Under the pieces are notes generated by a model. The model was not told where the DNA came from, searched no databases, and saw only the letters and a program-made list of their open reading frames with translations. From Nemertoderma westbladi (taxonomy: Eukaryota; Animalia; Xenacoelomorpha): DNA of 64,000 bases. Positions 18,794-63,815 of the stretch are shown here, piece by piece. Numbering within the stretch: the first letter of the stretch is position 1; every line of letters begins with the position of its first letter. The stretch is from positions 1-64,000 of the forward strand of contig JAUCBJ010004074.1 of the NCBI GenBank assembly GCA_032718475.1, given 5' to 3'. A program made the position numbers and the translations under genes.

Positions 18794-18871
18794 CCGCTCC
18801 CAGAAAATGGGATTTAAGTCTATAAAATATACAAAATCACAATTTCTAATATACATAAATACTCTAAACAG

Positions 18872-21857: not shown

Positions 21858-21868
21858 TGGCGCCCGAT
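21858..21868 (+). promoter_or_regulatory. Primer-binding site of element B (tRNA-Lys-like)
   Basis: TGGCGCCCGA directly follows the 5' LTR. Confidence 0.75.
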
Positions 21869-27909: not shown

Positions 27910-28099
27910 AATAGTCATAAAGAAATACAATACGAACATTCTTCATACTTTATCATATTTGAAAATTATAATGTGCAATTAATTACACTAAACAATATAA
28001 CATATTGTTTACTGTATATTAGTCATTTTTTGAAATTTTTTAAATGCAATAATGTATAACCCCACGTGGTGAAGGTTATGATTTGAAACTATTAGTTTC

Positions 28100-28108
28100 A
28101 AGGGGGAG
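28100..28108 (+). promoter_or_regulatory. Polypurine tract of element B
   Basis: AAGGGGGAG lies immediately before the 3' LTR. Confidence 0.75.
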
Positions 28109-32000: not shown

Positions 32001-35000
32001 ATCCCAAAGGCCTGGATGGTCATCCAGTACTCCACCGGTTTCTGGTTGAGGTCTCCTTCGGGCCACCACAGAAATCGTAGACTATCTCGATCCCTATCTA
32101 ACACCTTGACTTGTAAGAACATGCCTTCTATATCGGAGGCGAAAGCAATCGAATATTGTCTCAATCTTAAAAGAATTCCCAACAAAGATTGAAGCAAGTT
32201 GGGTCCGGGTAACAATTCAGAGTTAAGGGATTGACCCATGTAAAGAGCGGAGCCATCAAACACTACTCTCACTTCATGTGGTTTACCGGGTTTAGGAACG
32301 TAATGGTGAGTTAAGTAATACGTTCTTTCAGTCACAGGTGTTTCTTCCGGTACTCTCTCCGCGCATCCCTTACTAATAAATTTCTCCAGCTGTGTTTGAT
32401 ACATTGCTTTAGCTGAAGAATTAGCCGTAAGGCGTCGATGGAGTTGCGCGATTCTTTTTTCCGCCAAGGGTCTGTTATTGATGAATTTCGGTTCTCTCTT
32501 GCGGAAAGGTAGACCGACTTCATACCTACCTTGATCTTTGAGGAAACGTGTAGTTGTCTCTTGGATCTGCTTGGCCCTTTCCTCTTCCACTGACAAGGCT
32601 TTATCGTAGGAATTGGGCTCTACCGCCTCTTGCGTAAAGAATCGTACGGCATGTTCATCTCGAGTCTTGGCATTACAACGCTCAATGACGTCATTTAACT
32701 CTTCGTTATAAGCTTCTCGTTCAGTTGGATAAAGAAGTTGACATAAGTTCACTTGGTTTTGCCAAGCCTCGATTTCCTTAAGGAGGTCGATGGTATTCTC
32801 CTCATCAAAAAGCTGGTGCACGTCGTCGTTATCTGAGGAGTATGGGGTTCCCTCAGTTAAATCGTCTCCCTCACTAGTATCATCTTCCCATTCACTCACC
32901 TGGTAGACGCGATCTTGCGGTAGTCTTTCTCTGAGTGTTCTACGGGAAGGGCCAGTAAAGTACCAACCTACTCTAGTTCTTACCGCATAGGTCTGTAGTG
33001 GCTGCGGTTGAGCAGGCCGTTTCTCCAATGTCTCCAGCGCCTCATGCGCGTTTTGGCCGAGGAGTATTTGCACTCCAGGATAATCAGTCTGGAATCGAGG
33101 TATCTTAAGATGTTGGATGCTCTCATCCTCGTCCCAATTATAAAGGTCTACTTGAGTAGTAGCGAAGTTCTTTATAGCCACCAATTTCACTGACCTTATG
33201 CTATGTTCTCCTAGTTCGTCTTGTGGGGTGGACAACGCGCCTACATAATAATCAGCTGTTACTGTAGATTTCCAAACTTGCATAATGCCTGACATATTTA
33301 GCTTGGTTCGGATCTTAGGTTGTCCAGCGAAGATGTCTTCGGCTAGTTCTTTATCAATGAATGTTCCTGTGCTGCCGGAGTCCAGGAGGGCGTTCACTAT
33401 ATAGCTTTTCTGAGGTCCATGGACCCGTAACTGGACTACAGGAAATTCTCGGATTCCTACATTGGAAGTTGGTGCTTTCCACGATGGTTGTCGCTCAGAA
33501 GTAGTTAGAGTGAAGTCGCTGTCTGTATCTTTTTCATATGTGAGTGCTCGATACACTGCGGTATTTATCATGTAACAGGATTCGTTTTCGTCGGAGAACT
33601 CGTCCGTATAGAATCCTTCCATCTCAGATTGATCAGTGTCGTTCACATCACTGAATTGGACATGTAGTTCGGAATCACTTACCTGATTAGGACTATTTCG
33701 ATCGAATTCAGCGTGCAACAAGATATGATGTTTCGCACCACACTTTGCACACCTTATGTCTGAGTAACAGGTTCGCCGTTGATGTCCTTGTCTGAGGCAA
33801 TTATAACACAACCGCTTGTCCCACATGACTTCACGTCTCTCAGTTAATGATTTCTTTAGAAATTCATCACACATATTCAAACGATGGGTCCCATCACATA
33901 GCGCACATTTTGGTTTGATGTTACTCACCTTAATCTGAGTCACATTGTGCACACTTGCCTTTTCTTTGGGCTTTCTCACCTGAATTCTCTTGGGAGACGT
34001 AGGAGGAGTTTTTCTTACCTGTTCTCTCCTGTCATTTGCTCGAGACTTGAATTTACTTACCTGATCTTTAGGCATTTTATTGACATAATAAGATCTATCA
34101 GTGTCTTTCCCGCTATCTTCTCCTTGAGAAGTCTGGCTTTCGCCGTCGTCTGTATAACACACTGGTGTTACCTTTCTTCTGGAGACGGGTTTTTCACTTA
34201 CCTTGTTTTCCGGTGTCTTCTCTCTGGACAGTTTCAGGAGCTGTAATTTCACTTCTCCATCTAGGAATGACATGAGATCAGCCATGGTAGGGTCTCGTCG
34301 TTGTTGTTCCATCATATATAACACTTTCTTATCCCAGCGTGTACCTACTCCACCCTTCGGTAAAGTAGAAGCCACTGCTCTAATAACCATAGTGTTCTGA
34401 TACTCATGAGACTTACCTAGCCAATCTAATTGTCTGCAGATCTCCTGGATCTCATCGGAAAACTCGATAATCCCGCTGCTAATAAACTTTCGGGGCGCTA
34501 CTAACTTTGCATACAAATACCCAGCGATGTTATTCCTATTACCATACCTGATGTTTAATGTATCCCAAACTTGTCTTAATCCGTCTGGATGTCCAATAAA
34601 CTTTAACGCCATTAACTTGGGAGATCCTTCCAAGCACTCGATGAGGTATCTAAGTTTCTCTCCATTAGATAGTACAGAGTTCTGTATGTTATCTTTGTAA
34701 TATTCATTAAAAGGTAACCATTTCATCTCATCCCCATTGAACTTGATGATCTCTCCCACCTTCACCGCTTGCCGGGCTTCGGTTCTAGCCATTTGACACG
34801 TAAAACTTTCTTGGGCCATCGTGTTATTTAATATCGAGTTATCGGTATATAAATTTCTCGGATTATGATCAGGTCTATAGGGAATGTCATTATCAACAGG
34901 TCTATAATTACCCTTAATAGGGTTCACTATAGGAGTTTCTACTTCGCTAGCAGTATATATGCGTGTAGGCTCCACACCTTGCGCATGAGATACTTCAGAC

Positions 35001-37165
35001 CTAACAGGTTGACACATTGTTACCGAGGGTGGTGGTATACCCTTTTGAGTATTTACTAATTTATCGCATTCTAGCGCGATACTTTGCTGCACTTCTTGCA
35101 ACTCTAGTCTACTTTCCCTTACTGTGCCCTTGAATTGCTGAACAGTCTCCTGCATCTGCCCGAGCAGGAGATCCATCCCCCGCTGTCTCTCGTCCACCCA
35201 TTCGACCGCCGAAGCGGGAGTCGCCAACGTTGTAGCGGGCGGACGAGGGACCACGGGCGACAAATCAGGAATATTTCGCTCGGGATCCAGGACCTGAACT
35301 GTCTCCTGGGCAGTTCTACTGGGCACAGGTAGCTTAGTGCTATGTAGAGGGAATTTAGAGTTAGCTTAAGGGAGCACAGGTGTGTCTATCACCGAAGGGG
35401 TGATTTCAAAAACAGGCCTAATTATTTCAGGCTCATCTACTATAGTAGGGAGTCTTTCTATTTTAATTATTTGGTCTGTAGGTTCTGTACTACCTAAGTT
35501 GGTGTTATTTAGTTGCCTTCTAACAGCTGGAGGCAAATCAGGCAATTTCTGACGGTGGAATGTTCTTTTACGTCTACTTAGACGAGATCTATTTCCCTTG
35601 CCTTCAGTATCGGTGGTATCGCCTTCCTCAGATGATGTATATCCCTGTCTTTTGGGAGTAGATCGATTCATCATCTGCATATTACTAGCTGTTAACTGTT
35701 TATTTATGCAGTCTTGATTCTCCTGAATGTTTTCCAATTCTAATTGGGTGGTTTCTTCAGTCGCTCTCCGTTCGGCTTCTGCCACTGCCTCTGCGGCCTT
35801 TCTTTCAGCCTCGGCCGCCTTTGCTTCTGCCGCTGCCGCTGCCGCTTTTGCCTCTGCCGCTGCCTCTGCCGCCTTTGCCTCTGCCGCTGCCGCTTTTGCC
35901 TCTGCCGCTGCCGCTGCCGCTTTTGCCTCTGCTGCTGCCTCTGCCGCTGCCGCTTTTCTTTCTGCTTCTGCAGCTACCACTGCTGCTTTCTTTCTGTCTT
36001 CTATACGTTTTTTCTTTACTTGTTCCTCCTGGACTCGTGTGATGCGGAGTTGTTCATCAAATTTAGCCTGGTTCGCAGCCCTCATTTCCACATCGATGGC
36101 ATCCAACACAAGCTTGGTTCCTTCACTATTAGGGCTAAGTCCCTCTAACCTTCTCCTCAACTCGTCATCACCTAAAAAACGTTGATAGTCTGACAGATAG
36201 ATGTCAATGGCATCCCTCTTATGCGGCTTCTCTGCCGTCGCTTCACTTTCCACTTGGGAAAAAGTAGCGTCTGTTGATTCTCCATGGGTTGAGCGCTCCT
36301 CTAGCTGAGCTTTCCACTGAGCTGTTCCTTGAACCTGGAGACTCACCCTTTGAAACCAAGTCTTTACGGCAACTTGCAACGACGTGTCTTGTCTTCGTTT
36401 AGAAGCTTCTTCAAAGGCCGATAAAATTAGCCTGATTCGCAGAATTCTTTCTCTAACTTGATAAAGCAGTTGTCCCTGCTCTTGAGGTCCTTGTGGTTGT
36501 TGAAACAGTTGTCCTTTTACTCGCTCCATAGAGCTGAAGAATCCCTGTGCGTATCCGGCTGCGGACCTCTTCCACACAGCTGGATCTATAGTTTCCTTGG
36601 CTACTCCCATCCGGTGTATGTCTTCCCAGGCAGCTTCTGATAAATCAAACGGGAGTCCGGGTCCGGGGAAGTTCCATTGCGACTCGACAATAGACTTCAG
36701 TTCTTCACTCGTGTATCCCGCATAATTATCTTTAGTTGATCGTTGACTTCTCGCCCAATCGATCTGGTGTTCTTCCACTGCAATCAATAACCTAGTGAGT
36801 ACGGCTGCAGGAAGGATGAGAAGGGGATCCGAATAAACCGCTTCCGTCATCTTTGCTCCGCGCTCGGGTGTCAGCTCTACAGTATCCTCACTACTGGAGC
36901 TGTTGGGCCGTTGAGAAATAAGTTCTTGGCTAGCGGGTTGTTGCTGTTCTGCTGCTTCTTGGTCCCGCTTGACCTGAGCTCGAGTGCCTATGATAGACCT
37001 ACGATGTTGGACCAGCCTAGGTTCTGTTATTACTACTGGAGGGATGACCTTCCTCACAGTGGGAGGTGAACTGAACTTAGGTGTAGACGGTTCTACACCT
37101 TTATCTGAGTCGCAGATAGTTACATCCAATAAACTGTCTGACAGGTTCTGCTTAGTATCAGACAT
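29012..37165 (-). CDS. ~2,700-codon BEL/Pao polyprotein of copy A (long N-terminal extension, gag, PR, RT, RNase H, IN) with one in-frame stop at 35366-35368
   Basis: ORFs 35366-37165 and 29012-35326 are in the same frame; the TAA corresponds to GAA (Glu) in copy C. Motifs: CALCDGTH / CYNCLRQGH / CAKCGAKHH, ALLDSGS, YMDD, LHVFGDAS, H..H..CIPC, GVDLFGP, SDKGTNF, WERL. Confidence 0.93.
35770..35990 (-). repeat. Coding Ala/Glu/Lys repeat, (EAKAAAAA)n
   Basis: GCAGCGGCAGAGGCAAAA-type units; the tract is much shorter in copy C (50180-50285). Confidence 0.85.
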
Positions 37166-38504
37166 GTTTGTTTACACAGTTGAATGTCTACCGCTATATT
37201 ACAGTCTAAGCAAGTCTAGTAATTCAGTGTTAACTGCTAGCCTAGTAATTAATTACCGATACTGCTACTCAGTGTAGCGTGATATATATATAATATATTA
37301 GAATACCGGTATGCTTATAGTATATATAACTATATAAGTACTATTACAGACTAGGTTTATCACAGAATACCGGTATAATTTTAGCACAAATATATATAAA
37401 TATATAATAGGCCTATCGGGAATACCGGTATACAGCTTACAGTTTGTAGTATATATAATTCTGGACTAGAATTAATTACAAGTACCGGTATAATTTCAGC
37501 CTAAGTTTATAGAAATAAAGATAATAGGCCTATTGTAAATACCGGTATATCAATTATTTTAAATAACTGAATTTCTGAATTTCAAGGGTTACTTGGTTAC
37601 TTTAACTTACTTTATTACCGTTATTTAAGCAGTAGTCCAACTGATATTGAGACCTAATTGTTGTATGGCAGGCCTACTATTTATAAATCGTTAGATTTGA
37701 TTTATAATATATATATACCCGTTTTAATGGGTTTTGTCAATTGTTTGAAATAAATGTTATTATTTCTGGGGAGTAATCACTACACAAAGCGGTGCGCTTT
37801 CAGTGAAGTGTTACTTATAGGACACTAAAACAAATAATACTAATTTACCTAAGTTACTTAATACTACAAATTACGTACAATTCGGGTGAGATTACAATCT
37901 CTAAATAAACACAAAAATTTACAAAAAACACAAAATCCGAATTTACAGGGTAATTTTACAAGAAGTCTACAAACCAGCCTAACAAAGGGTTAGAAATCTG
38001 GTTATTACAACGGACAGGGTACTGCGGTATTTGAAAATAATACGTAGTAGTAAATACACTGCGTTGTCCAGATAGGAAAATACCACCGCCTGACGACCTA
38101 TAGCCGTATCGCTATAGGTACTACGTTATGTATCACGGAGTGTTCCTACCTAGAAGTTAATAGAGCTAATCGAACGTGCCTATCAACCACTTTACAACAC
38201 AAATATAATGCCTACACTAATTACTTTCGGAAAGCACTGTACACTAAACCCTAAATTAGGTACGAGTACTTGTACAACAGATAATCAGTAGTTAAATATA
38301 CTTGAACAGCTAAAAGAACCACGGCATCTGCTGGAGTGACCGATGCACAAAATCACCAGTCTTTACCTACGCCAAGCAGCCCGTGTAGTACCGGGGTTAA
38401 TTTAACTATAGCGGTATGTATAACAAACACAATTACTGTAGGAACAAACTTGGGGAATGAATGTTGCGAATAATCGCATAAACTCTGAATAATAAATATT
38501 ACGC

Positions 38505-39065
38505 TATGCGTAAAAACCACTCAAACAAAATGCAGACCAAATACTGACAGACTACCATCAAGCCTAAACAAACTACGGTATATGCAGACTCCGAAATGAT
38601 TAGGTAGTATGCGTTCTAACCCAGTAGTACGACTTATTCTTTAGTTGGGGGTTTACCTTACAGCAATGGCTGCCCCTACTTCCTAACCGTTCTTTATCGG
38701 ACAGATGCTTTACACACACCGAAATCCGTTCAGACCTAATAGCAGCCAGACAACTATCCAGCCTACAAATTATCTAAATAAATATTATACGCTACCCGTA
38801 CAGACTACACAAACAAAGTACAGACTAAACGATGGCAGACCACTCTCAAGCCTAAATAAACTACAGGACATGCAGACTCCGAAATGATTAGGTAGTATGC
38901 GTTCTAACCCAGTAGTACGACTTATTCTTTAGTTGGGGGTTTACCTTACAGCATTGGCTGCCCCTACTTCCTAACCGTTCTTTATCGGACAGGTGATCTA
39001 CACACACTGCAATCCGTTCAGACTTAACAGCAATCAGACAGCAGCCCAGCCTACAAATTGTCTGT
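38505..39065. repeat. 287-bp tandem duplication in the element leader
   Basis: GACTCCGAAATG at 38588 and 38875; the same spacing occurs in copy D (1082 and 1369). Confidence 0.85.
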
Positions 39066-39428
39066 ACAATATGATCAGGCTTACACGCCTTCTGTTCAAT
39101 ACTGGCCTACAAATAAATAAAACTGACAGAAATAAGTAAGCTCCAAAAGAAACAAGGGGTGTAGAGTCCCTAATCTCTTAAACAGCCTACCGGTATACAA
39201 TAATCAAATCGAATAATACTAATGTACTTATACAGGAAGTACCGGTTAGGACAGTTAGGCCTACGGACCTACAGAAGTACCGGTTCTGGCAGTTGGACCT
39301 ACGGACCTACGGCAGTACCGGTTCTGGCAGTTGGGCCTACTGACCTACAGATGTACCGTTCAGGTTTACCGGTTGACCGGTACTTTCAACTGTATTGCTT
39401 ACTGCAATAAAGAAGCTATATCCGTTAT

Positions 39429-40594
39429 TGTTTGCGCTTTCAGACCTTTGGCAGTTTAACCCGCCAAATTATGATGTCTTCTAGATAATAAATCACTTTT
39501 AGCCTATGACAAGTATTTAATTCACTACACTAGTCGAAACCAATCTGTGCGCGATCATTCACCCGCTGGATATACCCGGGAGATTGGGTTCGACGGCTTA
39601 ATCTTATTGCTATGTAAGCTTAATGTATTATTCGACTGACAGTATTATATAATCTATGACAATATTATTCACCTTCGGGGAATATTAACAGTTCCTTTAG
39701 GACGTGGCGCTCTATCTATATAAACAGAGTTATGACTTAAACTACTCACAACGATATGGCTTAGTTATAATTCACATATATGGCGCATTCTTTAGGAAAT
39801 GCTTCGTTATCAGTCTCACTCATACACAATGCTGCACAATACTGCACACTGATCTGCCGATCTTCACTGATTTTAGTTATATATAAAAGGAACACGGACC
39901 GACTCATGTAGGGTCTATCAAATAACATTAGATTCACTTCAAACCACTTTAACATAAGTCACAATCGTTATATGTAACCTTTCTCTCTTACCTTCGGTAT
40001 ATCAAGAATATTGGGTTTCGGGGTTATTTATCGTTATTCCAAATATAATAATTCATCAACCATATTATGAAGAACTGACAGTAAATAGCAGTATAACAAT
40101 AGAAAGACCAAACATCAGTTTGATAAATCAGTTTGGTTTGTTTTGATAACGGATATATGTCCTTATAATTAAGCCTACTAGTGTTAGACTAAAACAGAAA
40201 AGCACAAAATATTTCCAAGCCGTTCTCTCCTGGCTCAGGACAGAAAGACCAACAACACTAAAAACTGATAAGAATAACCTTATTTACAAAATCTTCCACC
40301 CACCACAGAGAATGAGCATACAGATAGGAAAATTCAGTTCAGTAGATCTGTGATAGGTCGAAATCAAAACCAACTCAAATCCTATTGGCAGATACAGAAA
40401 GCAGGGCTGTGGGGCAACCTTCCCAAGCTGGTTGGACGATCAAACGTAGCCCAGATCCCTTCGCACAGCAAATCAGCCAATCAGCCGGTAGCTTGCACTA
40501 TTCGAGTTATAGATCCCTTTTTAGAGTATTCCAGCGCCTGGGGGGAACTGGTTAGCAAGGCAAACGAATCAGTTATCCCACAAAAGCTTTTACA
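39429..40594 (-). repeat. 5' LTR of copy A
   Basis: Minus-strand TGTAAAAGCTTTTG...GAAAGCGCAAACA, 1166 bp. Confidence 0.95.
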
Positions 40595-47965: not shown

Positions 47966-49000
47966 AATCCCCATGCGTAACGCATTCGTAGTTAACATTC
48001 GTAATTAACTTCTAGGTAGGAACACTCCGTGAAACATAACGTAGTACTTATAGCGATACGGCTATAAGTCGTCAGACGGTGGTATTTTTCCTATCTGGAC
48101 AACGCAATATATTTACTACTGCGTATTATTTTCAAATACCGTAGTATCCTGTCCGTTGTAATAACTAGATATTCTAACCCTTTGTTAGGCTGGTTTGTAG
48201 ACTTCTTGTAAAATTACCCTAAAAAATTCGTACTTGTAATTTTTGTGTTTATTTAGAGATTGTAATCTCACCCCGCAATTGTACGTAATTTGTAGTAATA
48301 AGTAACTTAGGCAAGTAGAATTATTTGTTTTAGTGTCCAACAAGTAGCACTCCACTGAGAGCGTACAGCTTCTGTGTAGTGACTCCTTCCCAGAAATAAT
48401 AACATTTATTTCAAATATTGTGACAAAAACCCATTATACGGGTATATATATTATAAATCAACTCAAACCGATTTATAAAATAGTAGGCCTGTCATACAAC
48501 AATTAGGTCTTAATATCAGTTGGACTACTGCTTAAATAACGGTAATAAAGTCAAGTAAAGTAACTAAGTAACCCTTAAAAATTCAGAAATTCAATTATTC
48601 TAAAATAATTGATATACCGGTATTTACAATAGGCTTATTATATTTATTTCTATAAATTTGAGCTGAAATTATATACCGGTATTCTGTAATTAATTCTAGT
48701 CTATACTTATACTTATATATACTATAAGTGTAAGCTGTATACCGGTATTCACGATAGGCTTATTATATATCTATATATTTGTGCTGAAATTATATACCGG
48801 TATTCTGTGACAAACCTAGTCTGTAATAATACTTATATATATACTATAAGTGTATTCCGGTATTCTAACATATTGTATATATATCACGTTACACTGAGTA
48901 ACGATATCGGTAATTAATTACTAGGCTAATAGTTGATACTGAATTATTAGACTTGCTTTAACTGTAATATAGCAGTGGGCATTCAACTGTACAAATAAAC

Positions 49001-52000
49001 ATGTCTGATACAAAGCAAAACCTGTCAGACAGTCTCTTAGATACAACCATCTGTGACCCAGACAGGAGTGTGGAAAGTGTGAGACCGAAGTTCAACTCAC
49101 CTCCTACTGTAAGAAAGATCATCCCTCCAGTAGTAGTATCAGACCCTAGGCTAGTCCAACACCGTAGGTCTATCATAGGCACTCGGGCTCAAGTCAAGCG
49201 GGACCAAGTAGCAGCTGTTAAACAGCAGCAACACTCGAGCCGAGAACTTATTTCTCAGCGGCCCGACAGCTCCAGTAGTTCGGATACTGTAGAGCTTACA
49301 CCCGAGTGCGGAGCAAAGATGGCAGATGCGGTTTATTCGGATCCCCTTCTCATCCTTCCTGCAGCCGTACTCACTAGGGTATTGATTGCGGTGGAGGAAC
49401 ACCAAATTGATTGGGCGAGAAGTAAGCGATCAACCAAGGACAGTTATGCGGGATACACCAAGGAGGAACAGAAGTCTATTGTCGAGTCGCAATGGAACTT
49501 CCCCGGACCCGGACTCCCGTTTGACTTATCGGAAGCTGCCTGGGAAGACATATACAGGATGGGAGTGACAAAAGACACTAGTGATCCAGCTGTGTGGAAG
49601 ATGTCAGCAGCAGGGTATGTACAGGGATTCTTCAGCTCTTTGGAGCGATTAGAAGAACAACTGTTTCGACAACCCCAAGGACCTCAAGAGCAGGGAGAGC
49701 TGCTTTATCAAGTTAGAGAAAGAATTCTAAGAATCAGATTAATCCTATCGGCCTTTGAGGAAGCTTCGAAAAGAAGACAAGACACGTCGTTGCAAGTTGC
49801 CGTCAAAACTTGGTTCCAGCGGGTGAGTCTCAGGGTTCAAGGAACGGCCCAGTGGAAATCTCAGCTGGCTGAGCGCCCAATCCATGGAGAATCAACAGAC
49901 GCTACCTTTTCTCAAGTGGAAAGTGAAGCGACAGCAGAGAAACCGCATGAGAGGGACGCTATTGACATCTATCTGTCAGACTATCAACGATTTCTAGGTG
50001 ATGAAGAGTTGAGGAGAAGGCTGGCTGGACTTCGCCCTAATAGTGAAGGAGCCAAGTTTGTGTTGGACGCAATATATGCGGAAATGTTAGCTGTGAACCA
50101 AGCTAAATTTGATGAACGCCTCCGCATCGCTAGGGTCCAAGAATAACAAGTAAGGAAAAAACGTATAGAAGACAGAAAGACAGCAGCAGCGGCAGTGGCA
50201 GCGGCAGAAGCGGAAAGAAAGGCGGTAGAGGCAGCGGCGGAGGCGGAAAGAAAGATGGCAGTGGCAGAAGCAGAACGGAGAGCGTCTGAAGAGACCACCC
50301 AACTAGAGTTGGAAAATATTCAAGAGAATCAAGACTGCATAAATAAACAGTTAACAGCTAGTCAAATGCAGATGATGAGTCGATCTACTCCCAAAAGACA
50401 GGGATTTACATCATCTGATGAAGGCGATACCACCGATCCTGAAGGCGGAGGAAATAGATCTCGTCTAAGTAGGCGTAGAAAAATGTCCCACCGTCAGAAA
50501 TTGCCTAATTTGCCCCCAGCTGTTAGAAGGCAACTAACTAGCACAGACTTAGGTAGTACAGAACCCACAGACCAAATTATTAAAATAGAAAGACTCCCTA
50601 CTATAGTAGATGAGCCTGAAATAATTAGGCCTGTTCTCGAAGCCACCCCTTCGGTGATAGAGACACCTGTACTCCCGGAACCTACCTCTAAATTCCCTTT
50701 GCACAGCACTAAACTACCTGTGCCCAACAGAAACGCCTCTGAGACAGTTCCTGTCCTGGACTCCGAGCGAAATATCAACGATTTGTCGCCCGTTGTCCCT
50801 CGTCTACCCGCTACTATGTTGGCGGCTCCCGCTTCGGCGGTCGAGTGGGTGGATGAGGGACGGCGGGAGATGGGTCTCCTGCTCGGGCAGCTGAGGGAAC
50901 ACCGTTTGTGTTCCTCTCAGCAGGTCTGGGAGATGGAAGGGACTGTTCAGCAGTTAAAGGGAACAGTCAGAGAGGGTAGGTTAGAGTTGCAAGAAGTGCA
51001 GCAGAATATTGCGTTAGAACGCGATAAATTGGTAAATATACAAAAGGGTATACCACCACCCCCTGTAACAATGTGTCAACCTGTTAGGTCTGAAGTATTT
51101 CATGCGCAAGGTGTGGAGCCTACACGCATCTATACTGCTAGTGAAGTAGAAACTCCTATAGTAAACCCTATTAAGGGTAATTATAAACCTGTTGACAATG
51201 ATATTCCATATAGACCTGATCATAATCCGAGAAATTTATATACCGATAACTCGATATTAAATAATACGATGGCCGAAGAAAGTTTTACGCGTCAAATGGC
51301 TAGAACCGAAGCCCGTCAAGCGGTAAAGGTGGGAGAGATCGTCAAGTTCAATGGAGATGAGATGAAATGGTTACCTTTTAATGAATATTACAAAGATAAC
51401 ATACAGAACTCTGTGCTATCTAACGGAGAAAAACTTAGATTCCTCAACGAGTGCTTGGAAGGATCTCCCAAGTTAATGGCGTTAAAGTTTATTGGACATC
51501 CAGATGGACTAAGACAAGTCTGGGATACATTAAACATCAGGTATGGTAATAGGAATAACATAGCTAGGTATTTGTATGCAAAATTGGTAGCGCCCCGAAA
51601 GTTCATTAGCAGCGGGATTATAGAGTTTTCCGATGAGATTCAGGAGATCTGTAGACAATTAGATTGGCTAGGTAAGTCTCATGAATATCAGAGTTCTATG
51701 GTTATTGGAGCTGTGGCCTCTACTTTACCAAAGGGTGGAGTAGGTACACGCTGGGACAAGAAAGTGTTATATATGATGGAACAACAACGACGAGACCCTA
51801 CCATGGCTGATCTCATGTCATTCTTGGATGGCGAGGTAAAACTACAGCTCCTAAAGCAGTCCAGAGAGAAGACAACGGAAAATAAGGTAAGTGAGAAACC
51901 CGTTTCTAGGAGAAAGGTAACACCAGTGTGTTATACCGACGACGGCGAAAGCCAGGCTTCTCAAGAAGAAGACAGCGGGAAAGACACTGAAAGATCTTAC

Positions 52001-55000
52001 TATGTCAACAAAACGCCTAAAGACGTAAGTAAATTCAAGTCTCGAACCAATGACAGGAGAGAACAGGTAAGAAAAACTCCTCCTACGTCTCCTAAGAGAA
52101 TTCATGTACGAAAGCCTGAGGAAAGAACGAGTGTACACAACGTTACTCAGAATAAGGTAAGTAACATCAAACCGAAATGTGCGCTGTGTGACGGGCCCCA
52201 CCGTTTGAATGTGTGTGATGAATTCCTAAAGAAATCATTAAAAGATAGACGTGAAGTCATGTGGGATAAGCGGTTGTGTTATAATTGCCTCAGACAAGGA
52301 CACCAACGGCGAACCTGTTACTCCGACGCAAGGTGTGCAAAGTGCAGCGCAAAACATCATATCTTGTTGCACACTGAATTCGAACGAAACAGCCCGAGTC
52401 AGGTAAGTGAGTCCGAACTACATGTCCAATTCAGTGATGTGAACGACACTGACCAAAGTTCTGAGATGGAAGGATTCTATACGGACGAATTCTCCGACGA
52501 AGACGAATCCTGTTACCTAATAAATACCGCAGTGTATCGAGCACTTACGTATGAAAAGGACACCGACATTGAGCCCCCCCTAACTACTCCCGCCCGACAA
52601 CCATCTTGGAAAGCACCAACTTCCAATGTAGAGGAGTCCGAGAATTTCCCGTAGTGCAGGTGAGAGTCCATGGGCCACGAAAAAGTTATATAGTGAACGC
52701 CCTTCTTGACTCCGGTAGGTTGGTACTTTACTGGCCCTTCCCGTAGAACTCTCATGGAAAGGTTACCCAAAGAACGGGTCTACCAAGTAAGTGAATGGGA
52801 AGTGGAGAGCAGTGAGGTGGACGACCCAACTGAGGGAACACCATACTCCTCAGATAATGACGATATCTACCAACTCTTTGACGAGGAGAATACCATCGAC
52901 CTCCTTACGGAAAACGAAACTTGGCAAAACCAAGTGAACCTATGTCAACTCATTCGTCCATCAGGACAAGTCAACTATAACGACGAACTGAATGACGTGA
53001 TAGATCGCTACAACGCGAAGACTCGGGATGAACACGCCGTACGATTCTTTACTCAAGAGGCTGTAGAGCCCAATTCCTACAATAAGGCCCTATCGGTAGA
53101 AGAAGAAAGAGCCAAGCAGATCCAGGAGACAACTACACGTTTCCTTAAAGATCAAGGTAGATATGAAATCGGTCTACCATTTCGAAAACGGGAACCTAAA
53201 TTCATAAACAACCGACCCTTGGCGGAGAAAAGAATTGCGCAACTACATCGACGCCTTACGGCAAATGCTTCAGCTAAGGAAATGTACAAGATTCAGTTGA
53301 AGAAATTTATTAACAAAGGATATGCGGAGCGAGTACCGGAAGAAACACCCATAACTGAGAGAACGTACTATCTAACACATCATTACGTTCCCAAACCCGG
53401 TAAACCCCATGAAGTCCGTGTAGTATTTGACGGCTCCGCCCTCTACATGGGACAATCACTTAATTCCGAGTTATTGCCTGGACCCAACTTACTCCAATCC
53501 TTGTTGGGAATACTCTTAAGATTACGACAATATTCGATTGCTTTTGCTTCGGATATAGAAGGCATGTTCTTACAAGTTAAGGCGCTGGAAAGGGATCGCG
53601 ACAGCCTATGATTTCTGTGGTGGCCTGAAGGAGACCTCAATCAGAAACCGGTGGAGTACTGGATGACCATCCAGGCTTTTGGGATCATCTCAAGCCCTTC
53701 AAACGCCTGCTCAGTGGTGCGAACCACTGCTGATGACAACCGGGACGCCTTATCTAAGGAGGTGATCGGCAACATCAAACGGGATATATACATGGACGAC
53801 AATTTAAAGTCCCTCCCATCAGTGGAAGAAGCCATTGACGTCGCCAAAGGGACGGTAGAGTGCTTGAAAAGAGGTGGATTTCGATTGACTAAATTCACCA
53901 GCAACTCCCGTGAGTTTCTGGAATCGATTCCAGTAGAAGACCGAGGAGCGAAAGATCTAGACCTAATCAAGGACGATCTTCCAGAAACCAAGACTCTTGG
54001 TTTGAAATGGGACACAGAGAGAGATATCCTGTTTTTTCAGCTAAAACAGCGAGATAATCCAGTTCGGACTAAACGGATTTGTCTAAGTATCCTGAGCACT
54101 TATTTCGATCCATTGGGATTTATTAGCCTAGTTATATTGATTGCTCGGAGTTTAGTACAACAAATGTGGCTTGAAAACCACTCATGGGACGATCCACTCA
54201 AAGGAGAACTCTTAAAGAAGTGGATGAAATGGGAAGATTCTCTACCATCCATCGAGAACTTTATAATTTCCCGTTCATATTTTGGTCATGTTCTCCCTAC
54301 TTATTCCTATCAACTCCATGTGTTTGGAGACGCCAGCGATATGGGAATAGGTATAGTAGCCTACCTGAGAGTTGAAACTCCGGATGGAATCAAAGTCGCC
54401 TTGGTTACCTCTAAGGCCTTGATTAACAACAAGTTGAAGGTTCCTCGAGCGGAGTTAAAAGCGGCTCTATACGCTACAGCCATCGGCCGGAATGTAACAG
54501 AACAGATCGACTATCCACTGGAGAAAACTGTTTATTGGACCGATGCTTTACTCGTGTTGGAGTATATAACCAATGAAGTCTGTCAGTTCAGCGTCTTTGT
54601 TACTAACAGAGTAGCCATTATTCTTAGTCACACGAAGATAGATCAATGGAGACATTGCCCCGGAACGATTAATCCAGCAGACATCGCCTCCAGGGGAGCA
54701 ACTCCACAAGAACTGATAGATACTCCAGACTGGTTAGGTGGACCCGACTTCCTAAGCAAAGAAGAGGATGAATGGCCTCCTCATCTTACTACGGCAGAGA
54801 TTAGGCAGGCCAAGGGAGCGGAGAAAGTCAAACCTAAAACCCGGGCGAGTAAATCGAAGTTATTTAAACCTGTGATAGATCTGTCTGTACTACACACTTC
54901 CGGAGACGACGCTTTGGATCTGAAACCCCCAGCCACAAATAAGTCTGTTGTGGAAATTCGAGAGAGAGATTGGAAATCTGGAATACCAGACGTCTCGCAA

Positions 55001-56674
55001 GGACTCTCATCTCTCCTGCGGGGAGCGATACATCACTATAGTTCCTGGAATCGGCTCTGTAAGGCCGTTACATATTTAAAGCGATGTTTTCATCATCACT
55101 ACTCCAGGACGAAGAACACTAATGATACCGCTCCACTGACATCTGCGCAGGTCCATGTTGTTAAAGATCTTCCCAAATACAAGATATCCGACAGGTTTCT
55201 GAAGGAGAAGATCAGTTACCAGGAGCATGAAGAAAGCAATAAGCAGATACTGAGACTCCTGCAATGCTATGAGGATTCCGATAAGTATTTCCTGTTGTTG
55301 AGAAATCCACAGATGCGCTTAAGGGATCGTTTCTCTAGCACAATGATAGATGGGTTAATACGCGTTGGAGGAAGACTAACTAATGCTCCATTATCCTTTG
55401 ACACTAAGTTTCCCATACTCATTAGAAATCTTGAAATACAAATCAAGATGATTGTAGATGTTCACAGTAAGCTTTATCATGCTGGTAGAGAACGAGTTCT
55501 TAGCGAAATTCGAACCCGCTATTATTTTTATAAACCCCGTAGAGCTCTGAACCAAGTTCTTAGGAACTGCATACCCTGTAGGAAAGCATTCAGTAGGCCT
55601 TTAACACAGCGAGAGGCAGAATTACCTAGGGAACGAGTAAGCTTCTATGAACCACCCTTCACTAATACCGGTGTAGATTTATTTGGCCCTATTGAAGTAT
55701 ATCGTGCTAGGACTATAGTCAAGAGATGGTGTGTCATCTTTGTTTGTATGACTTGTAGAGCTATCCATCTCGATATGGTGAACGATTTATCTACTAACAG
55801 CTTCCTATTGAGCTTACGCCGACAGATCGCTCGCTTTGGAACTAGTAACACGATGAGATCTGATAAGGGAACAAACTTCATTGGTGCCAACAATGAAATC
55901 AAGGCTTACGTCAAAGATTGGAACCAAAGACAGGTGGACGATCAGCTAAGAATAACAGCGTCTAGCTGGACCTTCAACGCCGCCGACGCCCCTTGGTGGG
56001 GAGGAAGTTGGGAGAGATTAATCAGGAGCGTGAAGACCGCATTTCACTTTATAGTGCCGTGCCGCGCGTATCTCACCGACGAACTTTTGCGGACGTTAAT
56101 GGAGGAAATCGCCGCCTATCTCAACGAGAGACCGCTTATGCCAGTCTCATCGAGTCCCGATTCCCTGGAAGCGCTAACACCCGCGCACTTCCTACTGAAA
56201 AAACCTGTAGCCATGCTCCCACGATCGGAAATCACAGACGGAGACGAATACTGCCGGCAAACTTGGCAACTTATGCAGTTGTTATCCCGTCGTTTCGCTG
56301 ACCATTTCGAAAAACATTATCTGCCCACGCTACAACTTCGAACTAAGTGGTTTGCGCAGCAAGAAAACGTCAGCGCTGGAGACATGGTCCTTATTGTGGA
56401 TTCAGACCTTCCACGTAAGCGGTGGCAGACAGGTCGTATCATCGAGACTCATATCTCGGATGATGGTTTGGTGCGATCGGTAGAACTCGTCGTCATGCGA
56501 CGTAACTTTAAGAAACCGGGAATTGTCTTCGAGACACAGCAACTCAATCGCCCAGTTGGTCGTTTATGTTTACTGGAAAGAGACAGAGAACTCTCCGGAA
56601 ACTATGGAAGGCAAGATACTCTTCCCACGACCACCTCCCTAATCCAACAAACATCTAGGGACTCCCCAACGTAA
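49001..56674 (+). pseudogene. Disrupted polyprotein of copy C
   Basis: Homologous to copy A throughout. Stops at 50144-50146 and ~53609, a frameshift at ~52630, and a ~400-bp deletion in the protease after ALLDS (~52714). Confidence 0.93.
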
Positions 56675-57224
56675 CAGCGTCTGGAGTGGGTGTGTGACTA
56701 TATTATTTTATATTTGTTCTTATTATTTTATATTTATGTATGTATTATTATGTAATTTTATTATAATCGTTTTCTTTAATTTTATTTAGTAGAATGTTAT
56801 TTTAGCGATTATTTAGTAGATTAGTGCAATATATATTCGTGTTTATTACTTAATTACTTATATATTATATATTTAGTGCGACGGCGAGAAATAATTCTTT
56901 TTCTCTTTCCTTACTGTCCGTATTACATTATAAATACGTGACTACAGTAAGATGAAATATCCGTACTTATTAAAGTACAATAAAGCTCCTACTATATTCA
57001 AGTATTATTGGTAAGTAGAGTATTAGGAATGCAAAATTCAGATCCTCGTGTCTCGGCTAAACCAAGCTCTGGGTAGACCTTGGAAACGACTTGCCTCTTC
57101 TCACTGACATTGCTTCGTGCGATATTGCTCTCATACCGTATATTAAATAATACATATAGTAGCGTGATGTCCCTTTAACAGTAGCGTATAACGCAAAATA
57201 AATCTGTTAAACCCTTTGACCATC

Positions 57225-57495
57225 TGTAATTCTAGTCGATTAAGATATCGCGGCACCCACCGATATACTTGAAAGACAAAATTCTAGAATCAGTGGTTAA
57301 CGTCCCCAGACATGTTCTGGAATAAACCGGTGCCCATCCTAAATATTAACTATTAATATTTATAAAATCTGTCAAATTTCAGATCCTTTAAAATTCTAGT
57401 CGATTAAGATATCGTAGCACTTACCGATACTCTTAAAAAGACAAAATTCCTAGAATCAAGGATCCCAGTCCCCAGACATGTTCTGGAATAAAATT
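57225..57495. repeat. ~164-bp tandem duplication in the pol-accessory ORF spacer
   Basis: TCTAGTCGATTAAGATATCG at 57231 and 57395; also present in copy A (~21020-21310). Confidence 0.75.
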
Positions 57496-58314
57496 GTGTC
57501 TATTTTAATATTAAATAATAAAATTTACGGGAATAAATTCTAATTCATCTCTTTTAATGAATTTGATAAATTGTCATTTTATACAATTTATAACATTCCC
57601 AAAATTCCATTAATTAATAGATCATGGGAGCGGAGATTCACCCTATTAAGTGTATTAGTGTGCGAGAATCTCCAATAGATAGTCAATAGCCGATAAAATT
57701 TATAAAATCATGTATAAAGGGGATATTGACAATTAAAGAATTACTATTAAATAGCATCCCAGATCTGTATGCATGAGAATTACCCTAATTCTACTGCTAG
57801 CTTTCCATAATGTCACCATAGCAACAACCACGCTAGAATTAGAAGTGAGTTAAAAGAACAATAGAAAGCTTGCCCCATTGAATAGCATAGGGAATAAATA
57901 GCACACTGCTAGTATCCAAGGATACATAATAATAACGTGGCATTCTGGAAGGCACTGACTAACGGACAAATGGCCCGAATGTGTACAATTTGTGACAGTT
58001 GTGTGGAATTTGTGCGTTTATAGGTGAATGTTACTACTAAAGTGTGTTTACAGTAGCGAGTCGCAATTGTGAAAGTAGCCCTAACTCTGCCAGTAAGAAC
58101 CTGAAGTAAATCTAAGCCTTTGGGACGGACAGTGGAGTGACTTGTGCCGGTTATCGTTGTCGTTGTGTAGCTACTACGTTGGCGAAAAACACAGCGACGA
58201 CGGTACATCGGCGCTGAGGATCTTGCACTGTCCGGGGGCAGAGAGGGGTAGGCAGCGACGCCCGCTAGCCTAAATATAAACTTATTATAATATTAATAAA
58301 CTCATATAGCAGAT

Positions 58315-61300
58315 ATGACTGAGTTGATAGAAGATGATCTTGGTATCAGGGAGCGATATACTCTACCTTTACAAGCGTTTGTTGATAGCTTGATACGCGG
58401 CGACGCTGGTCCAACTACTACGGAGGACGATGGTCGTTATATCGAACCGCCAATGTCCCAGGAGCAACTTACGCGTGAATTGGACTATAGAAAATTCACC
58501 GCTCGCTATACGCATCGTAATGGTACGTATATGGACTTCTTAACTACTGGCCATCCTATCGATTTACACGATACGGACGATGTAGACACCGAAAGGGAAA
58601 TGGTTTTATTTAAATATCATACCCAGCGGAGTCGGAACGATAAACCGAGAATAGAACACGAGAATTCTATTCGAAACCGACTCGAAAGAGAAGACGTTGA
58701 AGAGCCAGATAAACGCAGCGACTTCAACGATTATCTGGAATTCCTGAGAGAAACATATCTCAATATTGCCAGTCAACAAAATCTAGAAACTCGATATCCT
58801 CAAGGTATACATCATGACCCTATGATAGAACTCAAACGGCTCTATTTCACTATGATGTATCTTACCGCCGATCGACCGCTACCTGTCGTCCCAGATAGCT
58901 TCGAACAGATGGAGGAATATTGTAAAACTGGAGAACGATCACCCGCGTTTCCCCTGCAGGACATGCGTCTTTGGTATTACTGCGACGAATGCCCTAGACC
59001 CAATCAGCAAACGGAAAGACATAAACATCCGCGGAGACGTTGCGCTAAACACAGTTTTACACGATATACTTATGGGAGTTTCGAGCGAAACCTGTTCGAT
59101 GTATCACCTACACTCGCTCGGCTCAAACGATCCTTAAATAAACCAATGATCAGAGTTCCGGAATACTCGGTCAGACCTCCTCATTCCTTAGTGAGACCTC
59201 AAACGCTTGATCCTAATAGTATAACGGATCCCCCTGAACTGTACTCACTATTTAAAGATCTTGTGTTACCCGAACAATTAATCGGCGGCACTCCGGTAGT
59301 GGGCTCGCTAGATATTCGCCAACCCTACCTAGCCGGATTAGGACGCGGTCATCTAATATCGCCGTTTAACCCGTACAACCGTCCAGGCTTAACCCCGATA
59401 CAACCCGTTACCGAAGTCGAAGAGAGCGTTGTACGATACGCGTTAGACGCTATTCGGCAGAAGATCGGAAAAGGAACTTACGATTGTTTAGAGAAACGCA
59501 AATTGCAGCAACAAGTCCAAGCGGTGAAGGAATTAGCTTTACCCCAGTTCGATCGAGAAATCCAGAACCTCGAGGAAGACATCGAACGTGGACGAACCTA
59601 TTCTCTACAAGAGTTCCTAGACGAGCGTTTACAACAACAAGCGGAGGAAAATCAGCTCGAGGAGAAACACATAGAAATGGATGAGAGAGAAGAAGCAGCT
59701 TTAGCCCAGCCAGAAGCTCAAATCCTTATGACGGATCTCTATTCTAAAACCATCATCCATCCTTCGATGGTTCCCCATTTCGGAGACAAACTCTTCGCCA
59801 CGACACAGCCTCAACCGATTGATATCAACCTAAGATCTCGAAATCTTATCGCTGACGCTCCCATGTTGCAACGTCCGCCAATCGAGGCCGCTCGTGTCGA
59901 TGGTATACTCGTTGAACCTCCGGACAATAGAGCGGATCTTGTCCGTCGTATGGTACACGAGGTTAACATACGCGCTAGACCTTTACCGAACTCGTTTTAT
60001 GGGATTAAAGATCATCCTTATTATGTCAATCTAACGCAATATTACATGGTAAAACCTGAAGATCCTACACATAGTCTGAAGTTTCTACCACTAATAAATC
60101 CTCTCGATCTTGTCGAACTCGAACAACTACAGAAACATCTGGATCAGTTAGTGAAAGTAAACTCATTTCGAAAACCCTATAATGTTTCCAGAATAGAGAA
60201 AGAGACAATACCTCCGTATAATCTTGATGGATTCATCAAAACTCGATTAGTCCACTGGAATCTCGACGTGTTATTCGAGGAGGAAAGAATACAACGATAT
60301 GGAGATGTGGAAACATATACTACACAATATTTAAAGTATAGAGATCTACCTAATGCTAGCGAATGCGCTACCTTGTGGCATCCAGTGGGAATGACTCTAG
60401 AAAACGCCACTAAAGAGTGGAATGAGACTCTTAACGTTATCGAGATGTATGGAATTGTCACTTACGATAACGAAGGTAGCGTTCCGGTTGGAGAACTGGG
60501 AACTACGAGCATGATACATATACGAGGACTAGCTGGTTCTACCCACGTATTTACTCGAGCGTGTTCCGATGTGATTGATTATTCTTTTGAGACCCTTACC
60601 GAAATCCAAAGAAACTCTGACATGGACAATTCGAACTCGCGCAGCGTTACGTCACCGACACCGAGCGCAAACCGGCCACGGGTATCGATGGATCGATGTT
60701 ACCCCAGCCCGTGCTCGAGATGTTGTTTAACGAAAGAGTCCTTAAAATCGGCTCAGCTGTTTATGGAGATCTCCAAAATGACTTTCGGAACATGGAGAAC
60801 ATTCCATACCCTTTCGTCGATACTCAGCTGATTGCTCCCTGGGCAGAAGGCCGAGGTTTCTTCCGCACTATGTATGCAAATACACCCAGCGGCATCACTA
60901 AAGTACAACGAACCTCCATCGGACATCTTGCCTTTCAAGAATACGGATGGAATTTCAAGGTTGGAAATTCTATCAATTATCAACAAGTATATGGAGATCA
61001 TTATTCTCGATTATACTTTGACGGACCATTGACCGTACCTGGCGCTGTGTATAGCTTTATGAGCGTTCCACTTCGTCCCTCCTTAGCTATATACACAATC
61101 TTTGAAAACGCCGCACTTGCCGGTTGGCTAGCCGATGTGTGCAGTCGTACCATACGCGCCCATCCCTTAATACTTGGAACCAAACTCGTCAAGCTAGATG
61201 AACACAATAAATTCATCCGCTTCGAATGTTTCAGGCGCTTTCTGACTCCGTTCCGTAACGTTGATAGTCAGTTCAAGGACCGCGCTCTGACTAAGCTCAG

Positions 61301-62567
61301 CCTAAGAGACTCAGCTGCGGAGAAGTTAGACAGCGCGGGATTCGCCCTTTTCAAGGACGTTTGTATACAGAACTTACATTCATCTGTTATACAAAGACCT
61401 CGAATACCCACGGGTTATTCTGTCGTGGAAGTTCAGACAGTGGGTTCGCTTGCGGAGACATCCGCACCTACCTCAGCTATGCAATTGGAAGACGAACCAA
61501 TATGCTTAGAATCTGAGGAGATTCAGCCTACAGCGCCCCGGAGCAGCGATAACGACTACGTCTTGGAATGGTATCAAGGTCCACAATGTATCACCGCATA
61601 CGATTATCGGCACGCTAACTATGTTTCTCGAAAGCATTGCCGATTATGCGCATTGAGAGATCATTTCACCCCTATGGACTCAGACGCACCCTGCTCCTAT
61701 TTCCATGAACAACCGACGATGGAGATCTATTGTGCGTATTGCAGACTCAATAACTCGCACATTTTCGCAGTCTGCCCCCAATTTATGACTCAATGCCATC
61801 ATTGTCAACTTAAAGGACATGCCAGTTTTGATTGCCCTTTTAACCGCGATCTGGAAAGCGTAGATGAGATGATTACCCTGCGCTACATCCGAGCTTGGGA
61901 AGCAAATGCGGATTTACATTGTGAGTCACGCCATCGCTATTACCCTGGACGCGCCTACGAAGGAGTTTACGCATTCCATCCTTATCTATTCGCGTCTGTT
62001 GAACAAAAATCGCGCACACCGAGTTACGAACTAATGAAGCATATAGGTGAGTGTATTTCCACCAAATTTGTTCGTAAATATCTCAGGAACATCAATCCTA
62101 ACGATATTAATTCATACAATTTGATTAATTTCGTCCGTCAAGACCCCGAGTATGGCGATTTGTTCATCAACTCGCACCCTGAGTTACAGGAAGTACATCG
62201 ATGGCCCTACGAATATCGAGCCCGAGAAAGCGAGCTGGAAAGAACCATTAAACCGAGGAAGTTTCTCACCACTCGCGGTCCACCTACCGCTATTGTCCAG
62301 ACGACTCGTCAGGGACCAGTAGGAGCTGCGGTCCTAAGACGCACTCTAAAGGCTGTTAGACCTAGCTCCACTGAGGTTGATATCGATCAACCCGGTACCT
62401 CGACCGGCGGATATACCGATCGTAATCCTAAACCTTCCGATGCAATTGTATTGCACCCTTCACCCAGGAGTTATAGCCCTCCTAGTAAAGTGGGTCGCCC
62501 GAAAGAGAAAAGGACTCGTGCTAGCCTCAAAAAACTGCGTAAACGCCGTCCGCGCAAGAAAGACTAA
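58315..62567 (+). CDS. Accessory ORF (~1,400 aa, one frameshift at 60621-60695): unknown N-terminal region, coiled coil, DEDDy-type 3'-5' exonuclease, CCHC knuckles, basic tail
   Basis: ExoI IVTYDNEG; LPQPVLEMLFNERVLKIGSAVYGDL (ExoII); FVDTQLIA; SIGHLAFQEYG; PLRPSLAIYTIFE (ExoIII-like); CAYCRLNNSHIFAVC; CHHCQLKGHASFDC; KKLRKRRPRKKD. Called by motif recognition only. Confidence 0.75.
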
Positions 62568-62644
62568 CTGTTTAGAGTATTTTTATATTTTAGAAACTGT
62601 GATTTTTATATTTTATAGAATTAAATCCCATTTTCTGGGAGCGG

Positions 62645-63815
62645 TGTAAAGGCTTTTGCGGAATTAGCTAGTCATTTTCCCCGAAAAGTACTCTGTAGAT
62701 GTTTTAACGGACATAAAAAGCCGTTTCCTTACTGTACCGGTGTTTTAGTGGACATAAAAAGCCATTTTTTTGTATGTGTACTTTAGCGGACATAACTAGC
62801 GATTTTATGTCGCAATACGCCAAAATACTCTTAATACAGTGTAGTTCAGATTACGACATCTATCAGCTGATTTAGTGTACTCGTGGAGCTTTCTTTGTTT
62901 GGCTCAGCCAATCAGAGCGATTTTCATTTTATTTGCACAGAAGCCTCCGGGAAATCGCGCAATGCATGATGGTTTATGTTTACCTTTTTTCCTAATGCCA
63001 GAACATCGGCTGTGGAATTATCCTATGTTTCAGACTTTAGCCAAACATTAGAACGGCTTTGATTATAGAAACGTATAACTGTTATCCTGTCATCCTGTCA
63101 AACTTCATAACATAACATATTGTCATATACAAACACCGCATTATTTTACTGCTATTTACTGTCGGTTATTAATTGTATCAGTTGATAGAATATTGTTATA
63201 TTTGGATAATATCGATAAATAATCATAAAACCCCATCTTCTTGATATACTGAAGGTAAGAGACCGGTTACATATAGCAATTGCGACTTACATTATATTGG
63301 TTTTGGAGTGAATCTAATGCTATTTCATAGGCACTACATGTGTCAATTGCTGTTCTCTTTATATGTGACTAAAATTAGTGAAGGTCGGCAGATTGGTATG
63401 CAGCATTGTGCGGTAGTGTGCATGAGTGTGACTGATAACAAAGCATCTCCTAAAGAATGCGCCTTATACGTGAATCATAAGCCATCCCGTTGTGTTTAGT
63501 ATAAGTCATAACTCTGTTTACATATTTAGAGCGCCACGTCCTAAAGGAACTGTTAATATTTCCCGAAAGTGAATAATATTTGTCAGAGATTATATATTAA
63601 CGATCAATCGAATAATACAGTAGGCCTACACCGCAATAAGGTCAGAGCTTCCGAATCCAGTCTCCCGGGTAAATCCAGCGGGTGAATGGTCGCGCATAGG
63701 CTGGCTTCGGCTAATGTAGTGTATCAAATACTCGTCATAGGCTAAAGTCGATTTATAACCTAGAAGACACCTAAATTTGGCAGGTTAAACTGCTAAAGGT
63801 CTGAAAGCGCGAACA
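62645..63815 (+). repeat. 3' LTR of copy C (~1171 bp)
   Basis: TGTAAAGGCTTTTGCG...GGTCTGAAAGCGCGAACA. Confidence 0.93.

Follow-up and report, generated by a model that had tools for sequence, protein, structure and literature searches.

Retrotransposons with a predicted exonuclease gene have been described in bdelloid rotifers. RNase D-like products of a third open reading frame (ORF3), of the DEDDy type and with the motif DEED, occur in gypsy-like Juno/Vesta and Terminons (accessible text of Rodriguez et al. 2017, PMC5408684), and the accessible parts of PMC6431247, PMC5718144 and PMC6338049 restate a DEDDy ORF3 for bdelloid long terminal repeat (LTR) and Penelope-like elements. The DEDDy catalytic positions are D, E, D, Y and D, as in EXD2 (accessible text of PMC6648332). 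The Belpaoviridae are described as 4.2-10 kb long with gag, pol and sometimes env (PMC8742986). The word 'exonuclease' is absent from the main text, so far as it is accessible, of the BEL/Pao survey PMC3118150, whose supplements may hold unannotated cases, and a literature search that had subscription journals and Repbase reports outside its scope found no BEL/Pao element with an exonuclease gene. A candidate for such a gene, here called ORF3, lies at positions 58315-62567 of a 64,000-nucleotide stretch of the Nemertoderma westbladi genome (contig JAUCBJ010004074.1, positions 1 to 64,000; the window), in copy B of a BEL/Pao family that is also represented in the window by copies A and C.

ORF3 of the window resembles the Juno/Vesta/Terminon ORF3s in being a separate, non-env ORF downstream of pol, in its RNase D-like DEDDy character, in the absence of a membrane segment and in the change of one catalytic Asp to Glu; a Cys/His motif is present in some of the bdelloid proteins, and activity is predicted only on both sides. 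The two differ in motif, which is DEED in the bdelloid proteins and reads D-E-D-E in the window, and in host, which is gypsy-like or Penelope-like in bdelloids and BEL/Pao here, the comparison being made by description only. The length of ~1,417 amino acids (aa), the 690-aa amino-terminal part, the three Cys/His knuckles and the basic tail distinguish the window ORF3 from the bdelloid proteins. Cargo of this kind is known, and what appears to be undescribed is its host class, size and layout of D-E-D-E plus triple knuckle. An earlier note on the window had pointed to DEDDy ORFs in bdelloid gypsy-type elements, which the accessible text of PMC5408684 confirms.

ORF3 and its exonuclease-like domain

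ORF3 consists of ~1,417 codons from the first ATG at 58315 and contains one frameshift, with a frame break at ~60620-60680 between two overlapping forward-strand frames (58300-60831 and 60621-62567). It starts 1.64 kb past the integrase stop (56674), stops 78 bp short of the 3' LTR and is a separate ORF with no fusion to Gag-Pol. These frames bear out the earlier note, which had placed a same-strand coding region of ~4.25 kb between integrase and the polypurine tract (PPT) and 3' LTR. Four parts are distinguished, with selection expressed as the ratio of nonsynonymous to synonymous divergence (dN/dS).

58315..60380, forward strand: ORF3 amino-terminal region, ~690 aa; dN/dS 0.33 (0.24-0.45) against copy A
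60385..61140, forward strand: divergent RNase D/DEDDy-like 3'-5' exonuclease domain, with the frameshift inside at ~60620-60680
61638..61985, forward strand: three Cys/His knuckles and a conserved downstream motif, common to the homologues P0001 and P0002
62415..62567, forward strand: low-complexity tail with a basic end resembling a nuclear localization signal (NLS), retained in copy A; dN/dS 0.25 (0.07-0.78) over 50 codons

The amino-terminal ~690 aa had no match in Pfam or NCBIfam and none that was convincing in the PDB. The highest 19-residue hydropathy values were 1.07 and 1.19, which indicates no membrane helix, as the earlier note had stated; an env or env-like identity was rejected on this ground and on the lack of a fusogen-type match in Pfam or the PDB. 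The NLS-like tail claimed there is also present, and its "two or three" knuckles are three, starting at 61638, 61731 and 61794; the one at 61638 departs from the canonical spacing. Profile matches of the knuckles were to HIV-1 nucleocapsid (NC; E 1.7e-5), Air2 (1.1e-4) and Lin28 (3.2e-4). The knuckles of NC, Air2 and Lin28 bind single-stranded RNA.

A search of 1.84e9 representative proteins returned two matches. The best, P0001 (ENA), with E 1.3e-7 and 30% identity over 171 aa, has no frame break and follows the same order as ORF3: ExoI, ExoII, DTQ, YxxxE, linker and triple knuckle. P0002 (contig FAOW01000007.1; E 4.5e-4) is a single long ORF (L002 79-2025) with two knuckle modules; the module is common with ORF3, the nuclease-like part is degenerate, and no reverse transcriptase (RT) or integrase match was found on its 3.7-kb contig. 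In both proteins, as in ORF3, an exonuclease-like part is followed by a linker, the triple knuckle and the conserved motif downstream of it, but at ~640 aa they are without the long amino-terminal region. Word-based protein searches yielded no new relative (0/2240; 1/952, the query itself; 2/433, both inputs). Scans of viral contigs found no relative, a metagenome scan found only the P0002 contig (1/141 stretches), and a plasmid tblastn search gave one match due to chance.

The putative catalytic residues of ORF3 are D60466, E60472, D60768, Y61092 and E61104, with Glu replacing the last Asp; all five had been quoted correctly in the earlier note. The order ExoI, ExoII, DTQ, ExoIII is that of the PF01612 group (RNase D, Rrp6, WRN-exo, EXD2 and Mut-7), and the best profiles are RNase D. 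ORF3 is unlike this group in its sub-threshold Pfam score, its ExoIII Glu, its insertions after ExoI and before ExoIII, and in having knuckles instead of HRDC, for which Pfam gave no match in ORF3. ExoIII reads YxxxE rather than YxxxD in both the window and P0001, and the Glu is therefore likely a family trait.

Three profiles were built from 30 bacterial PF01612 domains (30 loci of ~100 matches), comprising 22 RNase D/PolA domains, 30 domains and 8 stand-alone bacterial exonucleases. The 22-domain profile scored the window stretch at 15.3 bits and P0001 at 12.4, compared with at most 6.0 in 224 other window frames and at most 3.6 in 1,000 shuffles. With the 30-domain profile the window scored 10.5 bits and P0001 13.1, controls reaching at most 4.7. 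Profile A3 had no match in one E. coli genome. Local hhalign of the window plus P0001 gave a probability of 92.9% and a score of 50.5 (60 column shuffles did not exceed 22.6), aligning ExoII, DTQ and, with low confidence, ExoIII. The significant profile support is confined to ExoII-DTQ (44 positions). ExoI in a three-row alignment placed its DxE on the RNase D DTE with a score reached by 1/50 and 0/50 shuffles; for the window alone the score was reached by 13/50 shuffles and is not significant. The motif order of WRN-exo, EXD, Mut-7 and RNase D that the earlier note had read in ORF3 thus exceeds chance as a whole pattern, and its ExoI taken singly does not. NCBIfam returned only two matches, both RNase D models (E 0.008 and 0.07). 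The nuclease part of P0001 had atlas scores of 0.94-0.95, with 25/30 matches in DNA_pol_A_exo1 clusters and 171 shared features, this label being carried by 34% of members in the atlas cluster shown; the atlas match of the window exonuclease piece itself, at 0.80, is a lead only. The profile matches point to RNase D, and the reference set is bacterial only and so gives no placement relative to Mut-7, EXD or WRN.

Several results weigh against an exonuclease. The 8-domain stand-alone exonuclease profile recognised neither the window stretch nor P0001, and P0002 was recognised by none of the three bacterial profiles. The 92.9% local alignment puts ExoI in the wrong place, and global hhalign reached only 41%. 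The Pfam check for DNA_pol_A_exo1 that the earlier note had proposed gave no exonuclease match for the window ORF3 pieces, which fall below the PF01612 cut-off, and P0001 scored 11.9 bits (E 0.2) against a cut-off of 23.6. Sequence searches of the PDB found no DEDDy protein, and both single-sequence AlphaFold2 models were of low confidence (predicted local distance difference test 31 and 33). Among the 30 bacterial domains 29 ExoIII motifs were counted, every one of them closing with Asp, a residue that the search pattern required. By homology the domain is likely DEDDy-like, two formal tests (the Pfam cut-off and the ExoIII Asp) having come out negative, and a DEDDy fold for it is very probable.

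Family copies and selection on ORF3

The three copies of the family in the window are as follows.

48004..63815, forward strand: BEL/Pao copy B, colinear with copy A from 48004
17628..40594, reverse strand: copy A, with two LTRs, a 5-bp target duplication, gag-pol with one stop and an ORF3 remnant
1..2975, reverse strand: copy C, a 5' LTR (2975-1840) plus leader, running beyond the window edge

Copy A has both termini of ORF3 but is without the stretch equal to 59687-62414, which is the whole exonuclease and all knuckles. Because both ORF3 ends are common to copies A and B, ORF3 belongs to the element, and an unrelated insertion into copy B was rejected for the same reason. The remnant had been offered in the earlier note as proof that the gene is part of the element; lacking the nuclease stretch, it provides this link for ORF3 but not for the exonuclease itself.

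The family was surveyed in contigs from runs, 5/7 of the listed runs containing the stretch or part of it, and four runs were aligned. All 30 of 30 bins of 56000-63810 were covered in the four runs, and 63,177 contigs aligned in run X1, contigs not being copies; on this coverage the family is clearly multi-copy. Gaps and substitutions were counted in the 32 longest of 82,681 pieces (23 in ORF3, 7 non-coding or mixed and 2 in pol). The 23 listed ORF3 pieces, 4-16% divergent, had 5 gaps per 756 substitutions and the 7 listed non-coding or mixed pieces 19 per 130. Over the span absent from copy A, the 10 listed pieces had 4 gaps per 405 substitutions, with 3 of the 4 in pieces crossing the break zone. 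Insertions or deletions within ORF3 were 0/12 among those listed (111 total). Variant places were taken from the 40 listed of 1,595, and 14/25 listed ORF3 places were at third codon positions (p 0.016). For the exonuclease-knuckle span the figure was 10/20 listed (p 0.09), which for the nuclease itself is not a significant excess. As these pieces read, the ORF3 frame is kept in other copies. Three contig pieces (two runs, among those listed) each show one gap across the break zone, which fits a frame break private to copy B. A programmed frameshift or an intron at the break was rejected, there being no slippery run by eye and the break fitting a copy-private lesion.

Large deletion joints that remove the exonuclease have at least two forms, 59677-62405 and 58683-61487. 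The first (run X3) is close to the copy A deletion. The second (runs X4 and X5) removes the exonuclease and keeps the knuckle region. Contig depth drops over the exonuclease relative to its flanks; it cannot rank the parts of the gene and was not used as evidence.

Between copies A and B, dN/dS was 0.06-0.07 for pol, 0.18 for gag and 0.33 (0.24-0.45) for the ORF3 amino-terminal part, the last over 376 codons of 58315-59685; off-frame controls gave 0.75 and 1.23. These ratios, a check suggested in the earlier note and confined to the shared spans, are below 1 for the amino-terminal part and the tail (0.25) and show purifying selection on both. The copy A remnant has 10 stops and 7 gaps in the 376 compared codons, and there is one stop in copy A gag-pol. 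ORF3 thus decayed in the copy A lineage, in which gag-pol stayed selected and the element kept inserting. With copy A inserted recently and devoid of the exonuclease and knuckles, both are likely not needed in cis.

The host element and its surroundings

The remaining features of the family are as follows.

48968..56674, forward strand: gag-pol of copy B in four pieces, with an N-terminal extension, DUF1759, knuckles, RT (YMDD), RNase H, integrase and DUF5641
56675..58314, forward strand: non-coding spacer of 1.64 kb between the pol stop (56674) and the ORF3 ATG
62637..63815, forward strand: PPT (62637-62644) and 3' LTR (62645-63815, TGT..ACA), homologous to both copy A LTRs and the copy C LTR
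39428-39417 (copy A) and 1839-1828 (copy C), reverse strand: putative primer site, matching positions 438-449 (A) and 434-445 (C) of the own LTR

Pfam searches of the ORFs upstream of ORF3 matched DUF1759 (1e-11), Peptidase_A17 (6e-35), DUF5641 (2e-20) and Integrase_H2C2 (4e-7), a domain set that confirms the BEL/Pao host named in the earlier note. Gag carries DUF1759 and knuckles, and Pol has the order protease, RT, RNase H, integrase with Pao-type domains (Pfam; motifs of copy A). Copy A has two LTRs (within 0.2-1.2 kb), a PPT and a target duplication; copy B has the 3' LTR only. The family is like the Belpaoviridae in its gag-pol domains and their order, LTR length of 0.2-1.2 kb, TG..CA ends, PPT and 5-bp duplication. 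It is unlike them in that copy A is 15.8 kb long without its nested BEL element and without 2.7 kb of ORF3 (~18 kb if the missing ORF3 part is added), in its third gene, which is not env-like, and in having no tRNA-type primer site. Its domains and ends place the host element in BEL/Pao, where its size, primer site and third gene are out of the ordinary.

The copy A LTRs (40594-39429 and 18793-17628; 1166 bp) are 99.8% identical over 1165 bp and the target duplication is CTGCG (5 bp); on its sequence, copy A is a recent insertion. Copy B is 5'-truncated with no 5' LTR, lacks the protease motif and has 3 in-frame stops within gag-pol, and by these defects is dead.

No TGG follows the 5' LTR in copies A and C, which leaves no 18-nt primer site of the transfer RNA (tRNA) type (tRNA-Arg/tRNA-Gly). 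In both copies the 12 bases that directly follow the 5' LTR show perfect complementarity to a stretch of the own LTR. The difference between the A and C primer sites is mirrored by a matching change in the LTR partner, and cross pairs reach only 5-6 bases. A 12-base complement between primer site and LTR was reached by 1/2000 shuffles and is apparently a signature of self-priming. The spacer is 7-10% divergent from copy A (dN/dS-type control 0.83), has no similarity to the LTRs and ends in an acceptor-like AG immediately 5' of the ORF3 ATG. At its start (56683-56693), directly after the pol stop, a purine run plus TGT resembles a real PPT/LTR junction and may be a second PPT or a relic of an ancestral 3' end.

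Other observations concern the copies and their neighbourhood. Between copies A and B the internal non-coding regions (56675-58314 and 48004-48960) are only 7-10% divergent, while the same copies have a synonymous divergence of 0.3-0.9 and an LTR difference of 30%; constraint, recombination or composition effects may explain the low non-coding divergence. ORF1 (48968-51300) has a long extension amino-terminal to DUF1759 with no significant Pfam match, and purifying selection acts on its first 379 codons (dN/dS 0.18). A BEL/Pao element unrelated to the family is nested in copy A (21402-28559), with a pol ~30% identical and a TGG-type primer site. Its LTRs are 98.5% identical versus 99.8% for the host copy A, the reverse of the expected order. 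A TRIM-like gene (RING, B-box), intronless-looking, is present in two copies (4018-5877 and 42268-44147), each just downstream-opposite of a family 5' LTR (copies C and A), and the pairing of genes and LTRs suggests a larger duplicated segment. A 30-bp tandem array and a 38-bp satellite occupy 7336-8415, 13310-14900 and 63816-64000, and the 38-bp satellite also adjoins the copy B 3' LTR. A search against Rfam gave no match, and a tRNA gene search found none.

Possible roles of the ORF3 product

The explanation favoured here, tentatively and with real doubt, is that ORF3 is a trans-acting, optional accessory exoribonuclease that would bind and trim host RNA aimed at the element. Since ORF3 stands apart from pol, after 1.64 kb of spacer that ends in an acceptor-like AG, it would be expressed from a subgenomic RNA, spliced or internally started, joining at the AG before the ATG. 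The NC/Air2-like knuckles would capture single-stranded RNA, the basic tail would provide nuclear import, and two-metal 3'-5' catalysis would take place with Glu replacing the last Asp; catalysis of this kind with Glu at ExoIII is, on balance, probable. The targets would be small RNAs or antisense/surveillance RNAs of the host. Copies without the exonuclease would be helped by copies with the domain or would do without it, and the loss of the exonuclease from copy A, a recent insertion, speaks against an obligatory step in cis. A point against this proposal is that a silencing role could also harm the element (argued in the accessible text of Rodriguez et al., PMC5408684). In its fullest form, a giant (~18 kb) self-primed BEL/Pao lineage would encode an active nuclear exoribonuclease trimming PIWI-interacting RNAs (piRNAs), small interfering RNAs or surveillance RNAs in trans, with free-riding exonuclease-less sisters and a cassette family spread across unrelated retroelements; as a whole this is quite unlikely.

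ORF3 could instead keep the DEDDy fold with little or no catalysis and act through RNA binding, like EXD1, Maelstrom or Egalitarian, which is rather unlikely. The ExoIII Glu for Asp in the window and P0001 fits such a protein, as does P0002, in which the knuckle module is kept and the exonuclease-like part has degenerated. Against it, two proteins with only 30% identity preserve all four acidic positions and the tyrosine, and known inactive DEDD forms usually lose the acidic residues outright. The Klenow variant D501E is reported to retain much activity, for which a literature search gave no confirming data. Inactive DEDD derivatives in piRNA biology, which favour a binding role, are mentioned in the accessible text of PMC5408684.

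An active exonuclease working on the element's own RNA 3' end, self-made primer or complementary DNA (cDNA) ends is unlikely. This role would suit the absence of a tRNA-type primer site, the 12-base own-LTR match with its matching change in A and C, and knuckles that resemble nucleocapsid, and 3'-end processing has been proposed for the bdelloid ORF3 nucleases (accessible text of PMC5408684). However, copy A is recent, with a perfect primer match and a clean duplication but no exonuclease, although supply in trans is possible, and with ORF3 not fused to Gag-Pol its packaging would be unexplained. The primer/cDNA end processing suggested in the earlier note is weakened in its required form, copy A having inserted recently without the exonuclease and with an ORF3 remnant long decayed.

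That ORF3 was captured from a host and rides along as a passenger gene, now decaying, is highly improbable. ORF3 is broken in both window copies, the family has at least two large deletion forms, and its dN/dS of 0.33 is well above the 0.06-0.07 of pol, but the ratio is clearly below 1 despite one decayed lineage (off-frame controls 0.75 and 1.23), the frame is kept in family pieces 4-16% divergent, and a close host-type homologue was not found among the 1.84e9 proteins. Equally poor is the prospect that the exonuclease likeness is a chance resemblance of one 45-residue stretch in a knuckle protein of another fold: the only significant hidden Markov model match is the ExoII-DTQ segment, and neither a Pfam or PDB match nor a confident model was obtained, but four kinds of test agree on one family, and ExoI and ExoIII stand in order, with the three-row ExoI DxE on DTE rarely equalled by shuffles.

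With a DEDDy-like ORF3 in a BEL/Pao element, nuclease cargo would reach a third class of retroelements beside the gypsy-like and Penelope-like ones, and the shared cargo suggests that one type of helper was captured or exchanged more than once. Within a single genome some copies have the domain and others do not, a natural contrast that bears on the question of the nuclease role raised in 2017. In the fullest form of the trans-acting proposal, ORF3 would encode a nuclease by which a retrotransposon suppresses RNA silencing, a role that the earlier note had already put forward. To our knowledge few animal retrotransposon proteins counter small-RNA silencing, and a positive assay would therefore matter.

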